DNA from: Octopus vulgaris
Taxonomy: Eukaryota
Assembly (NCBI GenBank): GCA_951406725.2
Contig: OX597820.1
Location: 90,830,001-90,894,000, forward strand
Length of the DNA stretch: 64,000 bases
Reading direction: 5' to 3'
Shown here one piece after another: positions 4,145 to 51,860 of the stretch; the stretch's first letter is position 1; every line of letters begins with the position of its first letter. The notes below the pieces were generated by a model. That model was not told where the DNA came from. It did no database searches and saw only the letters and a list, made by a program, of their open reading frames with translations. Position numbers and translations under genes: made by a program.

Positions 4145-4432
4145 GGCGAAGGGTTATGGCTCAGTGGTTAGAGCGTAGAGCTTACGATCGTGAGGTTGTG
4201 AGTTCGATTCTCCGACTTGGGTGTGTGTTGTGTTTTGAGCAAGACACTATATTTCACGTTGCTCCAGTTCAGTCAGCTGTAGAAATGAGTTGCGACATCA
4301 CTGGTGCCAAGCTGTATCGGCCTTTGCCTTTCCCTCGGATAACATCAGTGGTGTGGAGAGGGGAAGCTGGTGTGCATGGGCGACTGCTAGCCTTCCACGA
4401 ACAATCTTGCCCTGATTTGTGCCTCGGAAGGT
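4145..4432 (+). mobile_element. tRNA-derived CORE-like SINE, family C (3'-truncated)
   Basis: A box TGGCTCAGTGG, B box GAGTTCGATTC, CORE-like TTGAGCAAGACACT; closely similar to 15770-16105. Confidence 0.9.
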
Positions 4433-15769: not shown

Positions 15770-15773
<4 letters not shown>

Positions 15774-16101
15774 TGGTTAGAGCGTCGAGCTTACGATCGT
15801 GAGGTTGTGAGCTCGAATCCTGGACCGGGCTGCGTGTTGTGTTTAGAGCAAGGCACTTTATTTCACGTTGCTCCAGTTCACTCAACTGTAGAAATGAGTT
15901 GCGACGTCACAGGTGCCAAGCTGTATCGGCCTTTGTCTTTCCCTTGGATAACACTGGTGGCGTGGAGAGGGGAGGCTGGTATGCATGGGCGACTGCTGGT
16001 CTTCCATAAACAACCTTGCCCGGACTTGTGTCTAGGAGGGTAACTTTCTAGGTGCAATCCCATGGTCATTCATGACCGAAGGGGGTCTTTACCCTTTACC
16101 C

Positions 16102-16105: not shown

Positions 16106-16133
<28 letters not shown>

Positions 16134-16182
16134 CATACATACATACATACATACATACATACATACGTACATACATACATAT

Positions 16183-16580
16183 ACAGGAGTGGATATGTGG
16201 AAACAGCTTGCTTACTACCCACATGGTTCCGGGTTCAGTCCCACTGCGTGGGACCTTGGGCAATTGTCTTCTACTATAGCCTCGGGTCGACCAAAACCTT
16301 GTGAGTGGAAACTTACTAGAAGCCCGTCGTATATATGTATGCATATGTATATGTGTGTGTGTGTGTGTGTATTTATGTATGTGTGTATATAAGTTGGTGT
16401 GTCTGTCTTTGACAACCGATGCTGGTGTGTTTACGTTCCGTAACTTAGCGTTCCGGCAAAAGAGACTGATATAATAAGTACTAGGCCTACGAAGAATAAG
16501 TCCTGGGGTCGATTTCCTCGACTAAAGGTGGTGCTCCAGCATAGCCACAGTCAAATGACTTAAACAATTAAAAGATTAAA
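16183..16580 (+). mobile_element. SINE family B with internal (TA)/(TG) microsatellite
   Basis: Collinear with 43079-43533. Confidence 0.9.
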
Positions 16581-16604
16581 AACACTAATATAGGATGTGA
16601 AGTG

Positions 16605-19545: not shown

Positions 19546-19617
19546 TACTGTTTGGTTTTTATTAGCATCCACTTGCTCTGTGATTGGTCTAAACACCATG
19601 TAATATCTATTATAAAG

Positions 19618-19950
19618 ACGACCTTTGTTCAAAAGTGAACATGGGATTGAACCTAGAAAGTTCACCTCCGAGACACAAGTCCGGGCAAGGTTGCTTGTGG
19701 AAGACCAAAAGTCGCCCTTGGACACCAGTCTCTCGTCTCCACACCACCGATGTTGTCCAAGAGAAAGGCAAAGGCTGATACAACTGGTTACCAGTGGCAT
19801 AGCAACACGTTTCCACAACTAAGTGTACTGGGACCACAAAAAATAAAATACTTTTCTCAAGAACACAACACATAACTCAGTACGAGAATCGAAGTCATAA
19901 CCTCACGATTGTAAGCCCGACGTTCTTGTCACTAAGACGTGCGTCTTCGT
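19618..19950 (-). mobile_element. SINE family C
   Basis: Reverse complement of 15770-16105, more diverged. Confidence 0.85.
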
Positions 19951-21204
19951 AATCTGTTATACGTTGATGTATATTTGATATGTACTAGGAGATAATAACG
20001 AGGGTTGAACTTAATCCATTATAAATGTGCTGCCCCAAATAATGACGGCAGCTAAGTTATTTAAGTGAAAAACGGACGTAGCAGAGAACGCCTGTTCGAG
20101 GGAGCCAGTTGATTCAGCCAATCACAGACTGAGTAGAGCTGTGAACAGACAGTGCCGCTTGAGCCTATTCTGAGATCTAAAAATGCATGTTTTGAACAAA
20201 TGCTAATGCAGAGATGCTTCAGTCCTAAGTTCAGTGGCAGCGTTAATGAAGATGTTACGCGTTAATTTAATGTGTTAAACTTATCTTTATTAACATATAT
20301 TGAATTTTACATAGATATATTTACTCAGATAGAAGTGTCAGAATTTGTGATCCTCCCGCACAAAAACGTTTCCCCGCACTTAGTTTAGAACGAAATGAGT
20401 ATTGCCTTAGAAATTATATTTTCCTGAAGTTTCAATCCTGAGAACTAATACAATATGTATTTATTAAGGATAATCTAAATTTTCTTCACTTCGAGATTTA
20501 GGGTAGTTTTCCACTGGAATTTGCATACGGATGTGTGAGGTAACCTATATCTGGCTCGATTCACAGACAGAATAATAAATCACTAAAACAATCGATTCAA
20601 CGTGACATACGTGATAGATAACACTTTAGTTATTTTTCTATTAATTTCTTATGCACAATGCGTACGATATTACATCTATTTCTAGATATGCCTGTTCCAG
20701 CTGAGTCATCGCATTTAGTCGCATTTAAGTCATATAAATCGAATGTCCTGCATTTCATTGTATGATTATATGCATTTAAATATGTGTGCGTACGTGCGTA
20801 CACTTATATATGCATATATATGTGTGTGTGTATATGTGTACGTACATGTGTGTGCTTGTATCTGTGGGTTTTTCGTTTCTTTATCTAATTTTCTGTGTGT
20901 GTGCATGCATTATGTAACTATGGTCTCTTGGTCGCTTTATGTCCTGTAATTTAGCTTTTCACAAATAGAAAATGCAAGTTGAATTCTAAACAGAGATATC
21001 TACCTAAATTGATTAAATACTTAAATACTGTCCTAGGGTGGGCAAAGTCGAAGGAATGAAATTTAGTAAGAGAATAAAATATTGCAATTTAATTGAAAAT
21101 GAAATGAATATATCATTTAGTTTTATATATATATATAGATGAATGAGATGTATTTAATTTTCAATTACATTACAATATTTCATTCTTTTATTAGGTTTCA
21201 GCCC

Positions 21205-25041: not shown

Positions 25042-25223
25042 TATCTGTAAAGGTGACAATTATTCGGTAGCCATGATAAAACTTCAAGTTTCGGATACTA
25101 GATAGTATTTTTCCGATGGCCGGATAACTGAAGAGATGGTGGCGTGAATTTCTACCTCGGCATCCGAAACTCGGAGTTTTAGCATGGCTACCGAATAATT
25201 GTCACATATTACATTTACAGATA
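25042..25223 (+). mobile_element. Fold-back PLE-like remnant with inverted arms
   Basis: 25053-25098 is the reverse complement of 25160-25205 (a few mismatches); TA-rich flanks. Confidence 0.75.
25123..25183 (+). ncRNA. Minimal type-I hammerhead ribozyme-like motif
   Basis: GATAA-CTGAAGA-GATG...CATC-CGAA-ACTC-G-GAGT-T-TTAGC. The inverted arm preserves TTATC, complementary to GATAA (stem I). Confidence 0.6.
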
Positions 25224-29571: not shown

Positions 29572-29862
29572 GTGTATGTATGTATGTATGTGTATGTATA
29601 TGTATGTATGTATGTGTATGTATATGTATGTATGTATATGTATGTATGTATCTATATGTATGTATGTGTATGTATATGTATGTGTATGTATATGTATGTA
29701 TGTATATGTATGTATGTCTATGTATGTATGTGTATGTATATGTATGTATGTATATGTATGTGTATGTATGTATGTATATGTATGTATGTATGTATATGTG
29801 TGTATGTATGTATATGTATCTATGTACATATGTATGTATATATATATATATATGTATATATA
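29503..29862. repeat. (TA)n followed by (TATG/TATGTG)n array
   Basis: Direct inspection. Confidence 0.97.
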
Positions 29863-30252
29863 CTCTTTTACTCTTTTACATCAGTCATTTGACTGTGGCC
29901 ATGCTGGAGCACCGCCGTTAGTCAAGCATATCGACTCCAGGACTCATTCTTTTTAAGCCTAGTACTTATTCTATCGGTCTCTTTTGCCGAACCACTAAGT
30001 TACGGGGACGTAAATACATCAGCATCGGTTGTCAAGCGATGTTGAGGGGACAAACACAGACACACACACTCACACTCACACACACGTAAAAAAATATATA
30101 TATATACATACATATATATGACAGGCTTCTTTCTCTTTATGTCTATCAAATGCACTTACAAGGCTTTGGTCGGCCCGAGGCTATAGTAGAAGACACTTGC
30201 ACTAGGTGCCACGCAGTGGGACTGAACCCAGAAATATGTGGTTCGTAAGCAA
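29862..30252 (-). mobile_element. SINE family B
   Basis: Reverse complement of 43079-43533, including the internal microsatellite. Confidence 0.9.
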
Positions 30253-30568: not shown

Positions 30569-30619
<51 letters not shown>

Positions 30620-30625
<6 letters not shown>

Positions 30626-31174
30626 AGTGAATGGAATAAATGGAGTTGAACGAAGATTGTACATAATACCTTTTATTACATTCTACACATGTTTCGAAGG
30701 CCACAAATTTCCAAATTCTGTTTAAATAAGGGTACCATATTGCGGCTTTCTCTTCAGGAAAAAACAGGAATTCCGTTGATAGGACAAAACAAAACAGAGG
30801 CACAGCAATTCGAACGAAGATGCTCCTTAGGAGCCCATGGCTGAGCTGCTTATCAATGTACGTTGAAATCGTGCCTCTGTTTTGTTTCCTGAAGAGAAAG
30901 CCGCAATATGGTACCCTTATTTAAACAGAATTTGGAAATTTGTGGCCTTCGAAACATGTGTAGAATGTAATAAAAGGTATTCTGTACAATCTTCGTTCAA
31001 CTCCATTTATTCCATTCACTAATAATATTAAACTTCAATTATCCGCTCCAACGCACGGTTGCAACACCAAATGGTCTTATCTCCAACCGTGCTGTTTTCC
31101 ACTGTGATTTTTGCTACCCAGGTATCGGTTAAACCTTTGAATATTCTGTTACGAGAAAATTCATCTTTCTATTT

Positions 31175-31181
<7 letters not shown>
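30620..31181 (+). mobile_element. Non-autonomous PLE-like fold-back element, family P1 copy 1
   Basis: Inverted arms 30621-30761 / 30885-31025 (one mismatch by eye), about 155 bp unique tail, (TA)n on both sides. Confidence 0.85.
30886..30965 (+). ncRNA. Minimal type-I hammerhead ribozyme (mirror copy on the - strand at about 30681-30760)
   Basis: TTC-CTGAAGA-GAAAGCCGC...GTGGCCTTC-GAA-ACA-TG-TGT-A-GAA; AATAAA at 30969. Confidence 0.7.

Positions 31182-32656: not shown

Positions 32657-32710
<54 letters not shown>
32477..32710. repeat. (TTA)n plus (TATC)n(TC)n(TA)n arrays
   Basis: Direct inspection. Confidence 0.95.
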
Positions 32711-32713
<3 letters not shown>

Positions 32714-33177
32714 AATATAAGGGCAGGCAACAGGTTGCTTCGCCGCATACCGAAGGAATTAAAAATGGCAGTCAAAGACGGTTTATTTCCATTTTCTACA
32801 AGTGGAGGTTCCATACACGACAAACCCTGCGATTCACATACGTAAAATCGGAGTAGTAAATAAACGAAAACAATTTCTTAACGGTAAGAGATTGTTTTCG
32901 TTTATTTACTACTCCGATTTTGCGTATGTGAATCGCAAGGTTTGTCGTGTATGGAACCTCCACTTGTAGAAAATGGAAATAAACCGTCTTTGACTGCCAA
33001 TTCTAATTCCTTCGGTATGCGGTGAAGCAACCTGTTGCCTGCCCTTTTAATTATATTTACTATATTTACTGAACTCTACAGAAGTTCCTGGCGCTTAAAG
33101 TCATATTTACATACCGAAATTTACCGGTAAATAATTGTTGGTTGTACGAAAAACCACGGATAAATTATTTACCCTTT

Positions 33178-33180
<3 letters not shown>
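32709..33180 (+). mobile_element. Fold-back element, family P2: 160-bp hairpin with 4-nt loop plus about 115 bp tail
   Basis: 32721-32880 vs 32885-33044, six mismatches by eye. Tail ends AATTATTTACCCTTTT next to (TA)n. Confidence 0.8.
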
Positions 33181-33219
<39 letters not shown>

Positions 33220-33223
<4 letters not shown>

Positions 33224-34157
33224 ATTATTGGTGAATTGAAGAAATGGAGCTGAACGCAGATTGAACAGAAATCGTTTTATTTCATTCTACACGTGTTTCA
33301 TTCTACAGGTAATTTATATTGATCCGGCCCTTCCGATGCCATCATTCGGTCATCAGGATAGGGCCGTATATAATAACATTAACATTTTAAGTAAGGACGG
33401 GAGCGCGGCGGATCAAACGGGGCTTGGTTTTTTCACAGCGGGGGTTTCCTTGACAAGGCAGGCTTAGATGAACACACACACATAAAACATAAAATATATA
33501 TTTTTTTTTCTGCCACCCAACGGTTCTCGCGGCAGTAGCCACTGACAGCCGAACGCTCAAACGCACACACGTACACAAAAAATGTTTTCTACCCCTACGC
33601 CAACACACACATATATAGAACAGTATACACACACACACGTCTCTAAGTAGATTTTTTCTCGCCCCTTATAAAACATCCAATATTCCTTAAATAGCCAGAA
33701 CTTTATTCTCGGTCACAAAGAACACCCACACACCCTCACCCACATGATTGACCGATGCCTGACCCGTTAAATTCTTCAGCCACCGGTTCTCAACATACAC
33801 TGATAAACAGTTTCGCCATGGGCTCTTAGGAGCATAGTTCGATTTGTTTTTGCTCCGCCTCTGTTCTGTTTTGTTTTCCATATTTTCTTCCTGAAGAGAA
33901 AGACACAATATGGTCCCATTATTCATATTTTGTATAAACACGTGTAGAATGAAATAAAACGATTTCTGTTCAATCTGCGTTCAGCTCCATTTCTTCAATT
34001 CACCAATAATGTTTTAATTTCAATTATCCGCACCAACGCGGTTGCAACACCATATGGTTGTACCTCCAACCGTGTGTTTACTGCTGTGATTTTTGCTACT
34101 AAGGTATGTTAAACTTTTGATTAATCTACTACAAGATTATTCATCTTTCTATTTCAC

Positions 34158-34160
<3 letters not shown>
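33220..34160 (+). mobile_element. PLE-like fold-back element, family P1 copy 2 (longest)
   Basis: Arms 33220-33298 / 33936-34014 appear identical; about 640 bp spacer; tail homologous to 31028-31181; CTGAAGAG at about 33891 with the 3' side of stem II deleted. Confidence 0.85.
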
Positions 34161-34225
<65 letters not shown>

Positions 34226-40500: not shown

Positions 40501-41458
40501 GAGCAGAGAGTTAATTGGTTGTTTTATTAATTAGTTGGTTAACTGAAAGCAAAGAAAAGGTGAACTACAAACTGGGCGGGTGTTTCTGTTAACATACTTG
40601 CCCAAAAGAAAGAAACAAACAAAAAAATTTTTAACACATGATTTCACATAATTTCGTAAAGCAAACACAACACTATCTTTCTTTCTCCACACAAATGATC
40701 AGAGACACACACTCACAAACACAAACAAATACACACACTAGACACACACTAAAATTCCATTAATCCGGTGTTCGATATTTCAAAAATCTGATTGTCCGAC
40801 ACATTTTACACTTCACCAACTTCTTCCTAAGTGCCCTCATTGTCCATTAGATTGCATCAACAGAAGTACGTGACAGATACTATATTTCATTCACTCCAGC
40901 CCGACAAAAAGTAAAACTGACCTTGGTAGTTTTTTGCAAAATAATGGGTCGGAACTAAATCCTTTACTGCTACAGACGCAGAGAGAGAAACTTAGAGAAA
41001 GAAGGATAAACGATCACCTCTCTCAACTGCTATTTATTCTATCAACCCACACAAAGTCTATTTCAACTGAACTAGAATAAGAACCGAATATTAGAACATG
41101 TTCCATCCGATGCTTTCAAAACGTTACCAAGCATTTCAAAAATGTAAAATGCATAATAAATTATTTGAGAAAGCTACTAATAATTACTTTAAGACACACA
41201 AGTAAAGGATTTCACAACATAACAACAAATGTGATGACTTATTTACTGGTATATTTATTAAGAAAGATGATTTCATATATATAACGATTACCAAATATAT
41301 ATAGTTATTTAAATACTAACTCAAACACAAGGGACTCATTCATGTTCTCTCATTTCAACTCAATGAACTTTTTTCTACGTCTCTGTGTCTTTTCTTGTCA
41401 CTTCCCACAAGCACACACACGCAGGTACATGTGTGTGTGTGAGTATGTGTCTATATAA

Positions 41459-41862
41459 GGCGTAGGAGAGGCTGTGTGGTAAGCAGTTTGCTTGCCAGCT
41501 ACATGGTTCCGGGTTCAGTTGCACTGCGTAACACTTAGGCATGCTTCTTCAACTATAGCCTCGGGCCGACCAAAGCCTTATGAAGGGCTTTGGTAGACGA
41601 AAACTGAAAGAAGCCCGTCGTATATATATATATGTATATATATATGTGTGTGTGTGTGTCTGTGTTTGTCCGTGTTTGCCCCCCAACATCGCTTGACAAC
41701 CGATGGGGGCGTGTTTACGTACCCGTAACTTTGCGGTTCGGCAAGAGAGACCGATGAAATAAGTACTAGGGTTACAAAGAATAAGTTCTGGGGTCGAGTT
41801 GCTCGACTAAAGGCTGTGCTCCAGCATGGCTGCAGTCAAATGACTGAAACAATTAAAAGAGT
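41459..41862 (+). mobile_element. SINE family B, full length
   Basis: Collinear with 43079-43533. Confidence 0.92.
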
Positions 41863-41881
41863 ATATCTACATATATTGTAG

Positions 41882-41916
<35 letters not shown>

Positions 41917-41921
<5 letters not shown>

Positions 41922-42422
41922 TGAAATAGAAAGATGAATAATCTTGTTGCAGATTAATCAAAAGTTTAACCGATACCTTGGTAGCAAAAATCACAGCAGA
42001 AGACAGCACGGTTGGAGGTACAACCATATGGTGTTGCAACCATGCGTTGGTGCGGATAATTGAATTTTAATATTATTAGTGAATTGAAGAAATGGAGTTG
42101 AACGAAGATTGAACAGAAATCGTTTTATTGCATTCTACACGTGTTTCGAAAGCCACAATTTACCAAATTCCGATTGAATAAGGAGACCATATTGTGTCTT
42201 TCTCTTCAGGAAGAAATAGGAAATCCGTTGGCAAAAACAAAAACAGAACAGAGGCGGAGCAAAACAAATCGAACGAGGCTCCTAAAGAGAAAGACACAAT
42301 ATGGTCTCCTTATTCAATCGGAATTTGGTAAATTGTGGCTTTCGAAACACGTGTAGAATGCAATAAAACGATTTCTGTTCAATCTTCGTTCAACTCCATT
42401 TCTTCAATTCACTAATAATATT
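41917..42422 (-). mobile_element. PLE-like fold-back element, family P1 copy 3
   Basis: Tail 41917-42068 (reverse complement of the P1 tail); arms 42069-42206 / 42285-42422 appear identical; TA flanks. Confidence 0.88.
42133..42212 (-). ncRNA. Minimal type-I hammerhead ribozyme, intact core
   Basis: TTC-CTGAAGA-GAAAGACACAAT...ATTGTGGCTTTC-GAA-ACACGTGT-A-GAA. Stem II 11/12 paired, palindromic stem III, GUA cleavage triplet, AATAAA just downstream. Confidence 0.78.
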
Positions 42423-42438
42423 ATATATATATATATAT

Positions 42439-42660
42439 ACCAATTAAGGACTGAACACGAAAAGTGGACAGTCAACATGCTAGATATAGACGTGAGGAGA
42501 ATGGCGATTTGAGGTCTATATCTAGCATGTTGACTGTCCACTTTTCGTGTTCGTTCCTTAATTGGTATATATAAATATTTTAATCTTCGGTTTCTTTTTA
42601 ATATGCTAGACCACTGGTTTTAATTGACTAAAATCAATTTCTACCCTTAATTAATTTTAT
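42439..42660 (+). mobile_element. Fold-back element, family P3: 53-bp arms plus tail
   Basis: 42439-42491 / 42514-42566. Tail contains ATGCTAGACCACTGGTT...TACCCTTA, also present at about 3600-3660. Confidence 0.75.
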
Positions 42661-43012
42661 ATATATATATATTTATATATACTATCTTTTACCACCAGAA
42701 TAACATCTTTTCCAGGTGGATATCCACATGTTTTCCTTGGGTTAATAGGTAGTAACGTGACCCTATGCAGAGCTGCCACCTTAAATTGGCAAATAGGTTT
42801 TAGTATGCAACTATAGTTATTACTTAGTTCTCATTCAGCTCGTTTTAAATCTCTGAATGAGAACTAAGTAGTAAATATACTGCACAGTAAAATCTATTTT
42901 GCCAACGTATGGTGGCAGTCCTGCATATGCTATGTGATAAAAAGCTGTGTGGTTTCGGGTTCAGTTCCAAACATTTCTGAATGGGTTTGGTAGACGGAAT
43001 CTGAAAGAAACC

Positions 43013-43078
<66 letters not shown>

Positions 43079-43079
<1 letters not shown>

Positions 43080-43248
43080 CGCAGGAGTGGCTGTGTGGTA
43101 AGTAGCTTGCTAACCAACCACATGGTTCCGGGTTCAGTCCCACTGCGTGGCATCTTGGGCAAGTGTCTTCTGCTATAGCCCCGGACCGACCAATGCCTTG
43201 TGAGTGGATTTGGTAGACGGAAACTCAAAGAAGTCTGTCGTGTATATG

Positions 43249-43307
<59 letters not shown>

Positions 43308-43533
43308 ATGTGTGTTTGTGTGTGTGTGTGTTTGTCCCCCTAGCATTGCTTGACAACCGATGCTGGTGTGTTTACGTCCCCGTCACTTAACAGTTCGGCA
43401 AAAGAGACCGATAGGATAAGTACTGGGCTTACAAAGAATAAGTCCCGGGGTCGATTTGCTCGACTAAAGGCGGTGCTCCAGCATGGCCGCAGTCAAATGA
43501 CTGAAAAAAGTAAAAGAGTAAAAGAGTAAAGAG
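43079..43533 (+). mobile_element. SINE family B, full-length reference copy
   Basis: tRNA-like head (TGGCTGTGTGG / GGTTCAGTCCC), CORE-like TTGGGCAAGTGTCTT, internal (TA)n(TG)n, tail (GTAAAAGA)n. Confidence 0.93.
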
Positions 43534-43887
43534 TATATATATATAGAGAGAGATGTATGTATGAATATAGATACATATAACGGTGCCTTGCTGCATTCTC
43601 ATAGTAGGAGCCGCTTGTTAGGATTTGATGCGCATAAAGTCGCTGTTATTTACAAATTCCTGTGCTGAAATATATGAATAGTAAAAGAAGCACCAAAGAA
43701 GTTCAAATTAACGACAAAGCAGCAGTTACGTCACTACTTTCAGCCCGTTCGGCTCAGAGAATGTCACAACACACGGACACTCATACATTCTCTCACAAGT
43801 GTGTTTGTTTCTGCCTGTCTATTTGTATGAGTATGTATATATGATGAAAGCTCACTGTATACAAATTCAGCAAAGAAGAATAGGTAT

Positions 43888-47340: not shown

Positions 47341-47648
47341 ATATAAAAGGGCTTAGTAAAATAAATTACTTTGCCGCATACTGAACTCATTAGAAATAGC
47401 AGCTAAAAAACTTTTTTAAAGCTATTTCTTAATACTTAAAGAAAATCTCTCTCATATATATGAGAGAGATTTTCTTTAAGTAAATAGCTTTAAAAAGTTT
47501 TTAGCTATTTCTAATGAGTTCAGTATGCGGCAAAAATTTATTTTACTAACCTAATAATTTGAATTCGCCTTGAATGGTCCCTTTGCATACTGAACAATTG
47601 GTGAAATTGATTAATAATTAATTAATTTTACCCTCAATTGTTGAAAAT
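47341..47648 (+). mobile_element. Fold-back element related to family P2, loop-less palindrome plus tail
   Basis: Arms about 47353-47457 / 47458-47549 centred on CATATATATG (indels present). GCCGCATAC.GAA motif shared with 32742. Tail ends AATTTTACCCT; TA flanks. Confidence 0.78.
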
Positions 47649-51079: not shown

Positions 51080-51860
51080 TACATAGTCTAATCAATAAAT
51101 ATCCGGACTGTTGCAATAATAACGAAACTAAAGGACGCAGAGTGAAGCAGCTTGGTCCAGATTCACCTAATTCTTTGATATGCGTGTGCACTAAGTTATA
51201 ACGTTCTAGCTCACTTATGCTGTTTGCAGCGGTGCCTGGAATGAAGGTGTATAGCATGTGGTCGTCGCATTCACCACGACAAAGTTGAGCAAAGAATCTG
51301 CATTAAAGTTTGCCAAAAGCTTGGCAATACCAGCTCAGAGGCCTACGCAAAGATTTCGAAAGGTTTTCATCGTTCTCGGCACAATCAAGGGGATGTTGTG
51401 CAACTGAAATCCCGCATCTCTTACCTATATCTTCAGTGATAATGGACTGAAATGAACCGTAACTAATCTGCACATCCTCTGATATGTCACGGATGGTGAC
51501 TCGACCATTTCCCCTCACAGTTGCACGTTCATCTGCTATATTTTTCTCAGTTCTGCTGCTTGCTGGTCTACCAGAACGTTAGTCAACTTGTGTACGACTG
51601 ATATACTCCTCTCTATACAATTTCTTCAACTTTATGTTAGCCTATGAGCAGAAAACGCTGTCATGGTCAATGCGATGATCACGCACAACACACCTTCCTC
51701 CCAAGCACTGCCGCAATAAGCGGAAGTGAGCTAGAATGTAAAAAATGTGTACGCATGCACAACAGTGTTGAAGGTCAACAGTTGTCAATTAGCTTCATTT
51801 AGCGTGCTTTAGCTTCGTTATCATGGCAACACCGTTGGTACTTATTGATCAGGCCTCGTA
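51080..51860. mobile_element. Mariner-derived non-autonomous element made of two inverted 5' ends
   Basis: About 200 bp imperfect terminal IRs. + strand KVEQRICIKVCQKLGNTSSEAYAKI; - strand RSGRPASSRTEKNI...RVTIRDISEDVQISYGSFQSIITEDIG (mariner N-terminal HTH motifs). Confidence 0.85.

Follow-up and report, generated by a model that had tools for sequence, protein, structure and literature searches.

The three copies of a hammerhead-bearing repeat family described here are probably young, 5'-truncated insertions of a likely Penelope-like element (PLE), the two arms of each copy likely stemming from two separate priming events on the RNA of one source copy. That the arms originate at insertion, be it by dual priming or by fold-back of a cDNA, is, both routes taken together, highly probable. 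A self-search of the window (the whole stretch of 64 kb that was analysed) located the copies at about 30618-31181 (copy 1), 33220-34161 (copy 2) and 41917-42423 (copy 3). Read in the sense of the element, all three have the same order of parts, i.e., (TA)n, an inverted tail-less arm, a junction, the sense arm, a tail and again (TA)n.

30618-30866, minus strand: copy 1, inverted tail-less arm, the longer of its two; intact hammerhead motif with CUGA at 30757 and a predicted cut after 30684
30871-31028, plus strand: copy 1, sense arm, lacking 28 nt immediately ahead of CUGA; intact hammerhead motif with CUGA at 30889 and a predicted cut after 30962
31029-31181, plus strand: copy 1, tail of 153 nt, then (TA)n
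33181-33220, no strand: (TA)n to the left of copy 2, its likely target; also the end of the adjacent fold-back element 32703-33180
33220-33299, minus strand: copy 2, inverted tail-less arm, its inner end being the hammerhead GAAA box; 79/79 against 33936-34014
33300-33306, no strand: copy 2, junction filler of 7 nt
33307-33890, plus strand: copy 2, sense copy, 5'-truncated at 33307, without a long ORF; high-copy family sequence upstream of the ribozyme
33891-33949, plus strand: copy 2, hammerhead remnant with CUGAAGA at 33891 and a GUA site; predicted cut after 33946
33936-34014, plus strand: copy 2, sense arm, up to the arm/tail boundary
34015-34161, plus strand: copy 2, one-sided tail of 147 nt, then (TA)n
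41917-42067, minus strand: copy 3, tail of 151 nt, then (TA)n
42068-42284, minus strand: copy 3, sense arm; intact hammerhead motif with CUGA at 42209 and a predicted cut after 42136
42280-42289, no strand: copy 3, junction, where the CUGA box shares a 9-of-10 inverted microhomology with an upstream segment of the element
42285-42423, plus strand: copy 3, inverted tail-less arm, 139/139 against its partner, then a TA run

In each of the three copies a head-to-head inverted, 5'-truncated copy adjoins the 5' end, a one-sided 3' tail of 147-153 nt has fixed ends, and TA runs adjoin both sides. The outer ends of the tail-less arms coincide to within 2 nt before (TA)n begins, in agreement with the first-pass annotation, which had described them as nearly fixed at the arm/tail boundary. 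The tail ends are also aligned across copies, 147-153 nt beyond this boundary. The 5' truncation is variable: in the window copies and in contigs of public runs the sense copies begin anywhere between 33307 and 34133. None of the three copies contains a long ORF, and at all three a target-site duplication is unreadable within (TA)n. At the filler of copy 2, ATTCTACA at 33300 duplicates the arm positions 33284-33291, a templated duplication which presumably arose by slippage or end-joining. Between 33820 and 34160 the sense copy of copy 2 lacks nucleotides in at least 6 small deletions when compared with copy 3 and long family contigs; the deletions are either genuine or were introduced by the assembly.

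Within each copy the arms are near-identical, as had been claimed from the letters alone. The arms of copy 2 (33220-33298 and 33936-34014) agree in 79 of 79 positions and those of copy 1 (30618-30759 and 30887-31028) in 141 of 142. In copy 3 (42068-42211 and 42280-42423) 143 of 144 positions are identical, the sole mismatch being located in the junction microhomology, i.e., 139 of 139 without the junction. The earlier by-eye counts of about one difference in copy 1 and none in copy 3 were essentially right (1 of 142; 0 of 139). The pooled arm-arm divergence amounts to 1 in 360 paired nt with a 95% upper limit of 1.5%, and such divergence may date insertions, as it does for paired LTRs. The 77 nt common to all six arms contain 13 variable columns, of which 12 sort by locus and one is a singleton of copy 1. 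Over these 77 nt the differences are 1, 0 and 0 within the loci versus 5-13 between them (Fisher p=4e-7), and the statement that the copies differ from one another at many sites holds. The pairing of arms by locus rests on three loci with both arms; short Logan contigs cannot pair arms. The variants of copy 2 which had been called private are indeed the same in both of its arms (79/79), yet the one at 33257 is not private. Here the base of copies 1 and 3 accounts for only 27-58% of contig depth in runs X1-X4, thus the base of copy 2 is a common subfamily variant; 33257 is the only diagnostic site which the contig depth table resolved.

Arms of different sources, or old and diverged ones, might have been homogenised after insertion by intra-hairpin gene conversion, the second route which the first-pass annotation had offered. 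Conversion of short inverted repeats is possible, and the sense copy of copy 2 carries several deletions against copy 3 outside of the paired arm and none inside. However, a run of 79 nt free of indels is expected by chance with a probability of roughly 0.2 (a rough estimate), the unpaired interior of copy 2 matches abundant family contigs (75 nt, 0 differences, depth 2453), and the arms of the adjacent fold-back at 32703-33068 differ by 7 mismatches and a 6-nt gap, which demonstrates that arms in this region do decay. Copy 2 looks young because its unpaired interior is near-identical to abundant family sequence; homogenisation is not needed, and we consider it very improbable.

The junctions were surveyed in contigs of four of the 24 listed public runs (X1-X4; organisms A and B among the sources) which were aligned to 33211-34172. 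Depth is high in 30 of 30 bins and in 4 of 4 runs, thus the interior of copy 2 is family sequence. Upstream of 33307 the family extends with other letters, and loose ends before 33307 are present in X2 and X4. The contigs contain at least 19 different fold-back junctions (19 readable of 28 reported), each from one run. All 19 readable junctions join an inverted arm to a sense copy, and the sense-copy starts of these other copies scatter over 33460-34133. Family-wide fixed breakpoints, which had been named as an observation that would speak against an inversion formed at each insertion, are not what is seen: the 19 junctions are distinct among those listed. For 15 joints details are available. 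Four have microhomologies of 3-6 nt, ten have none, and several contain 1-8 nt of filler. The reference arm of 79 nt censors this list; the self-complementarity of stem II may have produced at least one joint (33299 to 33898) as an artefact of the alignment, and a cluster of joints at 34074-34080 coincides with an indel in the reference. A pile-up of joints at 33299 was dropped as evidence because the reference arm ends there. As a separate observation, five 5' ends are located at 33790-33830 (copies 1 and 3 and three contig joints), possibly a transcription start or a stall site of reverse transcriptase (RT).

The depth of the joints bears on the possibility that a pre-formed hairpin is moved as a whole, either as a read-through RNA or as a MITE-like DNA element, with the arm identity inherited from the source locus. 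Five of the 15 detailed joints have depths of 78-272 compared with about 35-50 for the rest, which indicates that some junctions are multi-copy. Yet three of these five have 4-6 nt of microhomology, permitting recurrence. The depth of these three (78-272) exceeds the median of about 39 for the other 12 (p=0.009, post hoc and with runs pooled; across all 15 joints depth and microhomology correlate with Spearman p=0.055), and this higher depth suggests that microhomology junctions form recurrently. Further, the three window copies have three different junctions, among the 19 listed junctions none occurs in more than one of the four runs, and a one-sided tail with unequal arms is unlike the terminal repeats of MITEs. 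A hairpin moved whole is, in our view, quite improbable.

Still more improbable is an artefact of assembly or polishing, in which chimeric palindromic long reads create the fold-back or a consensus equalises the arms. Nanopore sequencing reportedly makes errors at inverted duplicates, and many small deletions are present in copy 2 and in a fold-back at 47353. Parts of copy 2 are present in 20 of the 24 listed runs (organisms A-D and one metagenome), with a share of its words that reaches 0.63 in the best run, and no listed contig (32 of 12,580 pieces listed) bridges the junction of copy 2 itself. However, fold-back junctions of this family occur in independent public-run contigs from organisms A and B. 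Chimeras would neither stop at a fixed boundary beside (TA)n nor leave a one-sided tail, and polishing would draw the arms towards the family majority and not towards three separate subtypes.

The inner ends vary, as the first-pass annotation had stated; its placement of these ends in or right beside the hammerhead core is overstated as a general link. Pairing between the arms of copy 2 stops at the GAAA box, that of copy 3 within the CUGA box. The partner arm of copy 2 has its 5' end at 33307, about 585 nt upstream of CUGA. What looks like the inner end of copy 1 at 30887 is the edge of the 28-nt deletion in the tailed arm and not a 5' end; the true 5' ends are at about 30871 in the tailed arm and about 30866 in the tail-less arm. 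The tail-less arm is longer by about 60 nt and keeps the 28 nt which are deleted from its partner, thus it cannot be a plain copy of the tailed arm.

This asymmetry bears on fold-back self-priming, in which a first cDNA primed at the tail end would fold on an internal inverted microhomology and copy itself, while an endonuclease cut at the arm/tail boundary would fix the outer end. Self-priming on an antisense template has been proposed for head-to-head repeats (PMC3846280, in its available part), the junction of copy 3 lies inside a 9-of-10 inverted microhomology, and in copies 2 and 3 the tailed copy contains the whole of the inverted arm; these two copies fit a cDNA fold-back equally well. 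In copy 1, however, the tail-less arm outreaches its tailed partner and holds 28 nt absent there, which would require a later deletion; indeed, the asymmetry could come from a deletion after insertion. Further, 10 of the 15 detailed joints are without microhomology, and the fixed outer end needs a separate step. We regard self-priming as unlikely, though a reading to be taken seriously.

Dual priming is the reading which we favour, on account of the aligned outer ends, the variable joints, the way in which PAc, a Poseidon element of Anolis, behaves in vitro, and the asymmetry of copy 1, which speaks for two independent primings rather than for fold-back or conversion. All of its enzymatic steps are inferred. 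The reverse transcriptase/endonuclease of the PLE would nick both strands of a TA run. Synthesis of cDNA would be primed at the tail end by one nick and at the arm/tail boundary by the other, comparable to the two start sites of PAc in vitro. The stopping point of each cDNA would vary and in some cases coincide with the ribozyme fold, and the free ends of the two cDNAs would be joined by microhomology or filler; both being antisense, the product would be a head-to-head repeat. Because the arms overlap, in contrast to L1 twin priming, the template would have to be of one of three kinds: a tandem transcript carrying two pLTRs, a pair of sibling RNAs, or a single RNA which is read twice with strand displacement. 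Differences between loci would then be differences between source subfamilies and not mutations that were homogenised later. The proposal of the first-pass annotation that the inversion is made anew at each insertion is supported, since arms pair by locus in 3 of 3 cases and the 19 distinct junctions display microhomology or filler. It had named a second priming or a template switch as the cause; a second priming fits better, and a template switch on the cDNA fits less well because the tail-less arm of copy 1 holds sequence which its tailed arm lacks.

A motif scan of both strands of the window identified three type I hammerheads, all from this family: two in copy 1, one per arm, and one in the sense arm of copy 3. 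Each intact motif consists of CUGAAGA, a long stem II, GAAA, a short palindromic helix III and a GUA site, from which self-cleavage is predicted. The helix III loop is ACGU, and AUGU in copy 1. The ribozyme in the sense arm of copy 2 is broken, the 3' strand of stem II and G12 being deleted. Rfam reported no hammerhead at the gathering threshold, nor among 137 matches at E<=5. On the minus strand at 33327-33366 an antisense hammerhead-like core is present (CUGAUGA, a short stem and GAA), which is non-canonical and was not scored as a hammerhead by the motif scan; by eye, the loose ends of family contigs could supply stems III and I to this core in longer copies.

Five of the 19 readable sense copies start at 33945-33951, i.e., no more than 4 nt from the predicted cut after 33946. 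The binomial p for this clustering is 2e-4 to 3e-3 depending on the assumed span, and 0.02 for a cluster anywhere. Two starts at 33951 are explicable by a GAAA(T) microhomology; the other three by themselves yield p=0.005-0.02. Starts near the cut are a possible footprint of self-cleaved template RNA, a lead and not a result, and a similar pattern would arise if RT stalled just 3' of the hammerhead fold. The cut site is traversed in copies 1 and 3 and in the inverted arm of copy 2, thus their templates were uncleaved. A more specific version, in which a dimeric RT/endonuclease primes both strands on sibling templates at the two ends of the tail and some of the copies are made from hammerhead-cleaved RNA, is put forward tentatively and may well be wrong. 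If true, it would amount to genomic evidence that the ribozyme of an animal PLE cleaves in vivo and sets the 5' ends of insertions.

Since no ORF for RT or GIY-YIG is linked to the family, we infer its membership in the PLEs from the non-coding parts. Such an ORF was found neither in the three truncated copies nor among 16 ORFs of the window, for which Pfam gave one sub-threshold DUF match. In its workings the element resembles a PLE, and these non-coding hallmarks of EN+ PLEs are present: an inverted copy, a one-sided tail, a type I hammerhead motif of predicted activity, variable truncation and TA targets. The layout is real, well above chance, already known for PLEs and largely explained by known PLE biology; it differs from published cases by a tail about four times longer and, possibly, by ends at the cut site. 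The available parts of PMC8557442 and PMC3846280 present an inverted pLTR, 5'-truncated and without a tail, as typical of PLEs, and the EN+ PLEs (Penelope/Poseidon, Neptune, Nematis, Hydra) share with our family the 5'-truncated copy with an adjoining head-to-head copy, the one-sided tail and the hammerhead in the repeat. Targeting of (TA)n is shared with Hydra and Naiad, and Neptune has a microsatellite bias; the tail of EN+ PLEs is given as 30-40 nt, compared with 147-153 nt here (PMC8557442, PMC3846280, same parts). The Naiad clade was rejected because the hammerhead core is canonical here, whereas Naiads are without a canonical hammerhead according to the available part of PMC8557442; a comparison of four short family motifs with the supplement of that paper gave no relevant match.

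The PLE hammerheads in the accessible portion of PMC4209133 likewise have a type I core, a short helix I, a small palindromic helix III and an enlarged helix II, and pairs of motifs on opposite strands are reported there at distances of 100-700 bp. Different from these, helix II is here a hairpin of about 55 nt without an extra base before G10.1, and the motifs are missed by Rfam. For PAc, the portion of PMC11167929 at hand reports two RT start sites downstream of the hammerhead which bound the tail, cutting and extension of both target strands, and a predicted dimer. AT-rich targets and, as proposed here, start sites which match the tail bounds and the cutting and extension of both target strands are shared with our family. 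In contrast, the inverted arm is not derived from the second start site in that portion, and reads ending at the ribozyme cut were sought in Anolis and not found, while here some tailed arms begin at or beside the predicted cut. L1 twin or dual priming, as far as the available part of PMC2837659 describes it, shares the second target strand which primes a second cDNA and the joining of an inverted segment by microhomology or filler. The fragments from twin priming do not overlap, an internal segment is deleted and the second site varies, whereas here the overlap is 79-142 nt and the second site is fixed; overlap and fixed site place the family closer to dual than to twin priming.

In the accessible literature we found no published account of per-locus arm identity or of twin priming in PLEs, a subject which early Penelope reviews may cover. 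The available parts of bioRxiv 10.64898/2026.07.22.740005, PMC13282606 and bioRxiv 10.1101/2024.12.14.628481 do not describe this family, and scans with DNA patterns returned 0 loci, both in metagenome and in viral contigs. Two other element types were considered and rejected, a MITE or DNA transposon (the arms of 79-142 nt are not of fixed length and about 150 nt more of the element lie beyond one arm) and a non-LTR retrozyme (all three copies are head-to-head, and the window contains no tandem array). Copies of this kind can be mislabelled as MITEs or as hairpin RNA genes; the region has many sub-threshold microRNA matches in Rfam (E<=5). How the inverted arm of PLEs forms and what role their hammerheads have are open questions according to the available part of PMC8557442, and a young, very high-copy, long-tailed family makes both countable in one assembly. 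Dual priming and fold-back can be told apart by how frequently the tail-less arm is the longer one, and the positions of 5' ends can be compared with the ribozyme cut. Direct or partial-tandem pLTRs around the ORF and a retained spliceosomal intron are further marks of EN+ PLEs. Within the tail, at 34100-34110 and at the matching sites of copies 1 and 3, a splice-donor-like AG|GTAT motif is recognised by eye, and the short reading frame ahead of it is open in copies 1 and 3; together they may represent a first exon and a retained intron. The 50-aa tail frame was compared with longer proteins, and none of 8 candidates was significant.

The window contains further repeats. The neighbour of copy 2 at 32703-33180 is a second fold-back element with (TA)n, inverted arms of about 180 nt (170 identities, 7 mismatches, a 6-nt gap), a one-sided tail of 113 nt and again (TA)n. 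The motif scan detected no hammerhead in it, thus the layout, shared by this second family, seems independent of the ribozyme. It has its right TA run in common with copy 2, suggesting that insertions into TA runs occurred serially. A relative of this element is located at 47353-47646 (76% over 85 nt); its arms align with 85 identities, no mismatch and 13 gap bases, every one of them absent from the right arm, after which about 98 nt lead to a TA run. Sequencing errors or slippage may account for the gaps. Two short hairpins adjoin copy 3 (42417-42657 and 42764-42927), the first of which shares the TA run of copy 3, with about 70 nt before the next TA run. By eye, TACCCT is present near the tail end of the 32703, 42417 and 47353 elements. 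Older, more diverged inverted repeats are located at 21057-21200, 25046-25213 and 51088-51852. The self-search of the window further uncovered two dispersed repeat families, one at 4162-4432, 15771-16091 and 19613-19926, the other at 16123-16592, 29811-30252, 41444-41916 and 43018-43579, both of which we take to be SINE-like by their size of 270-500 nt.
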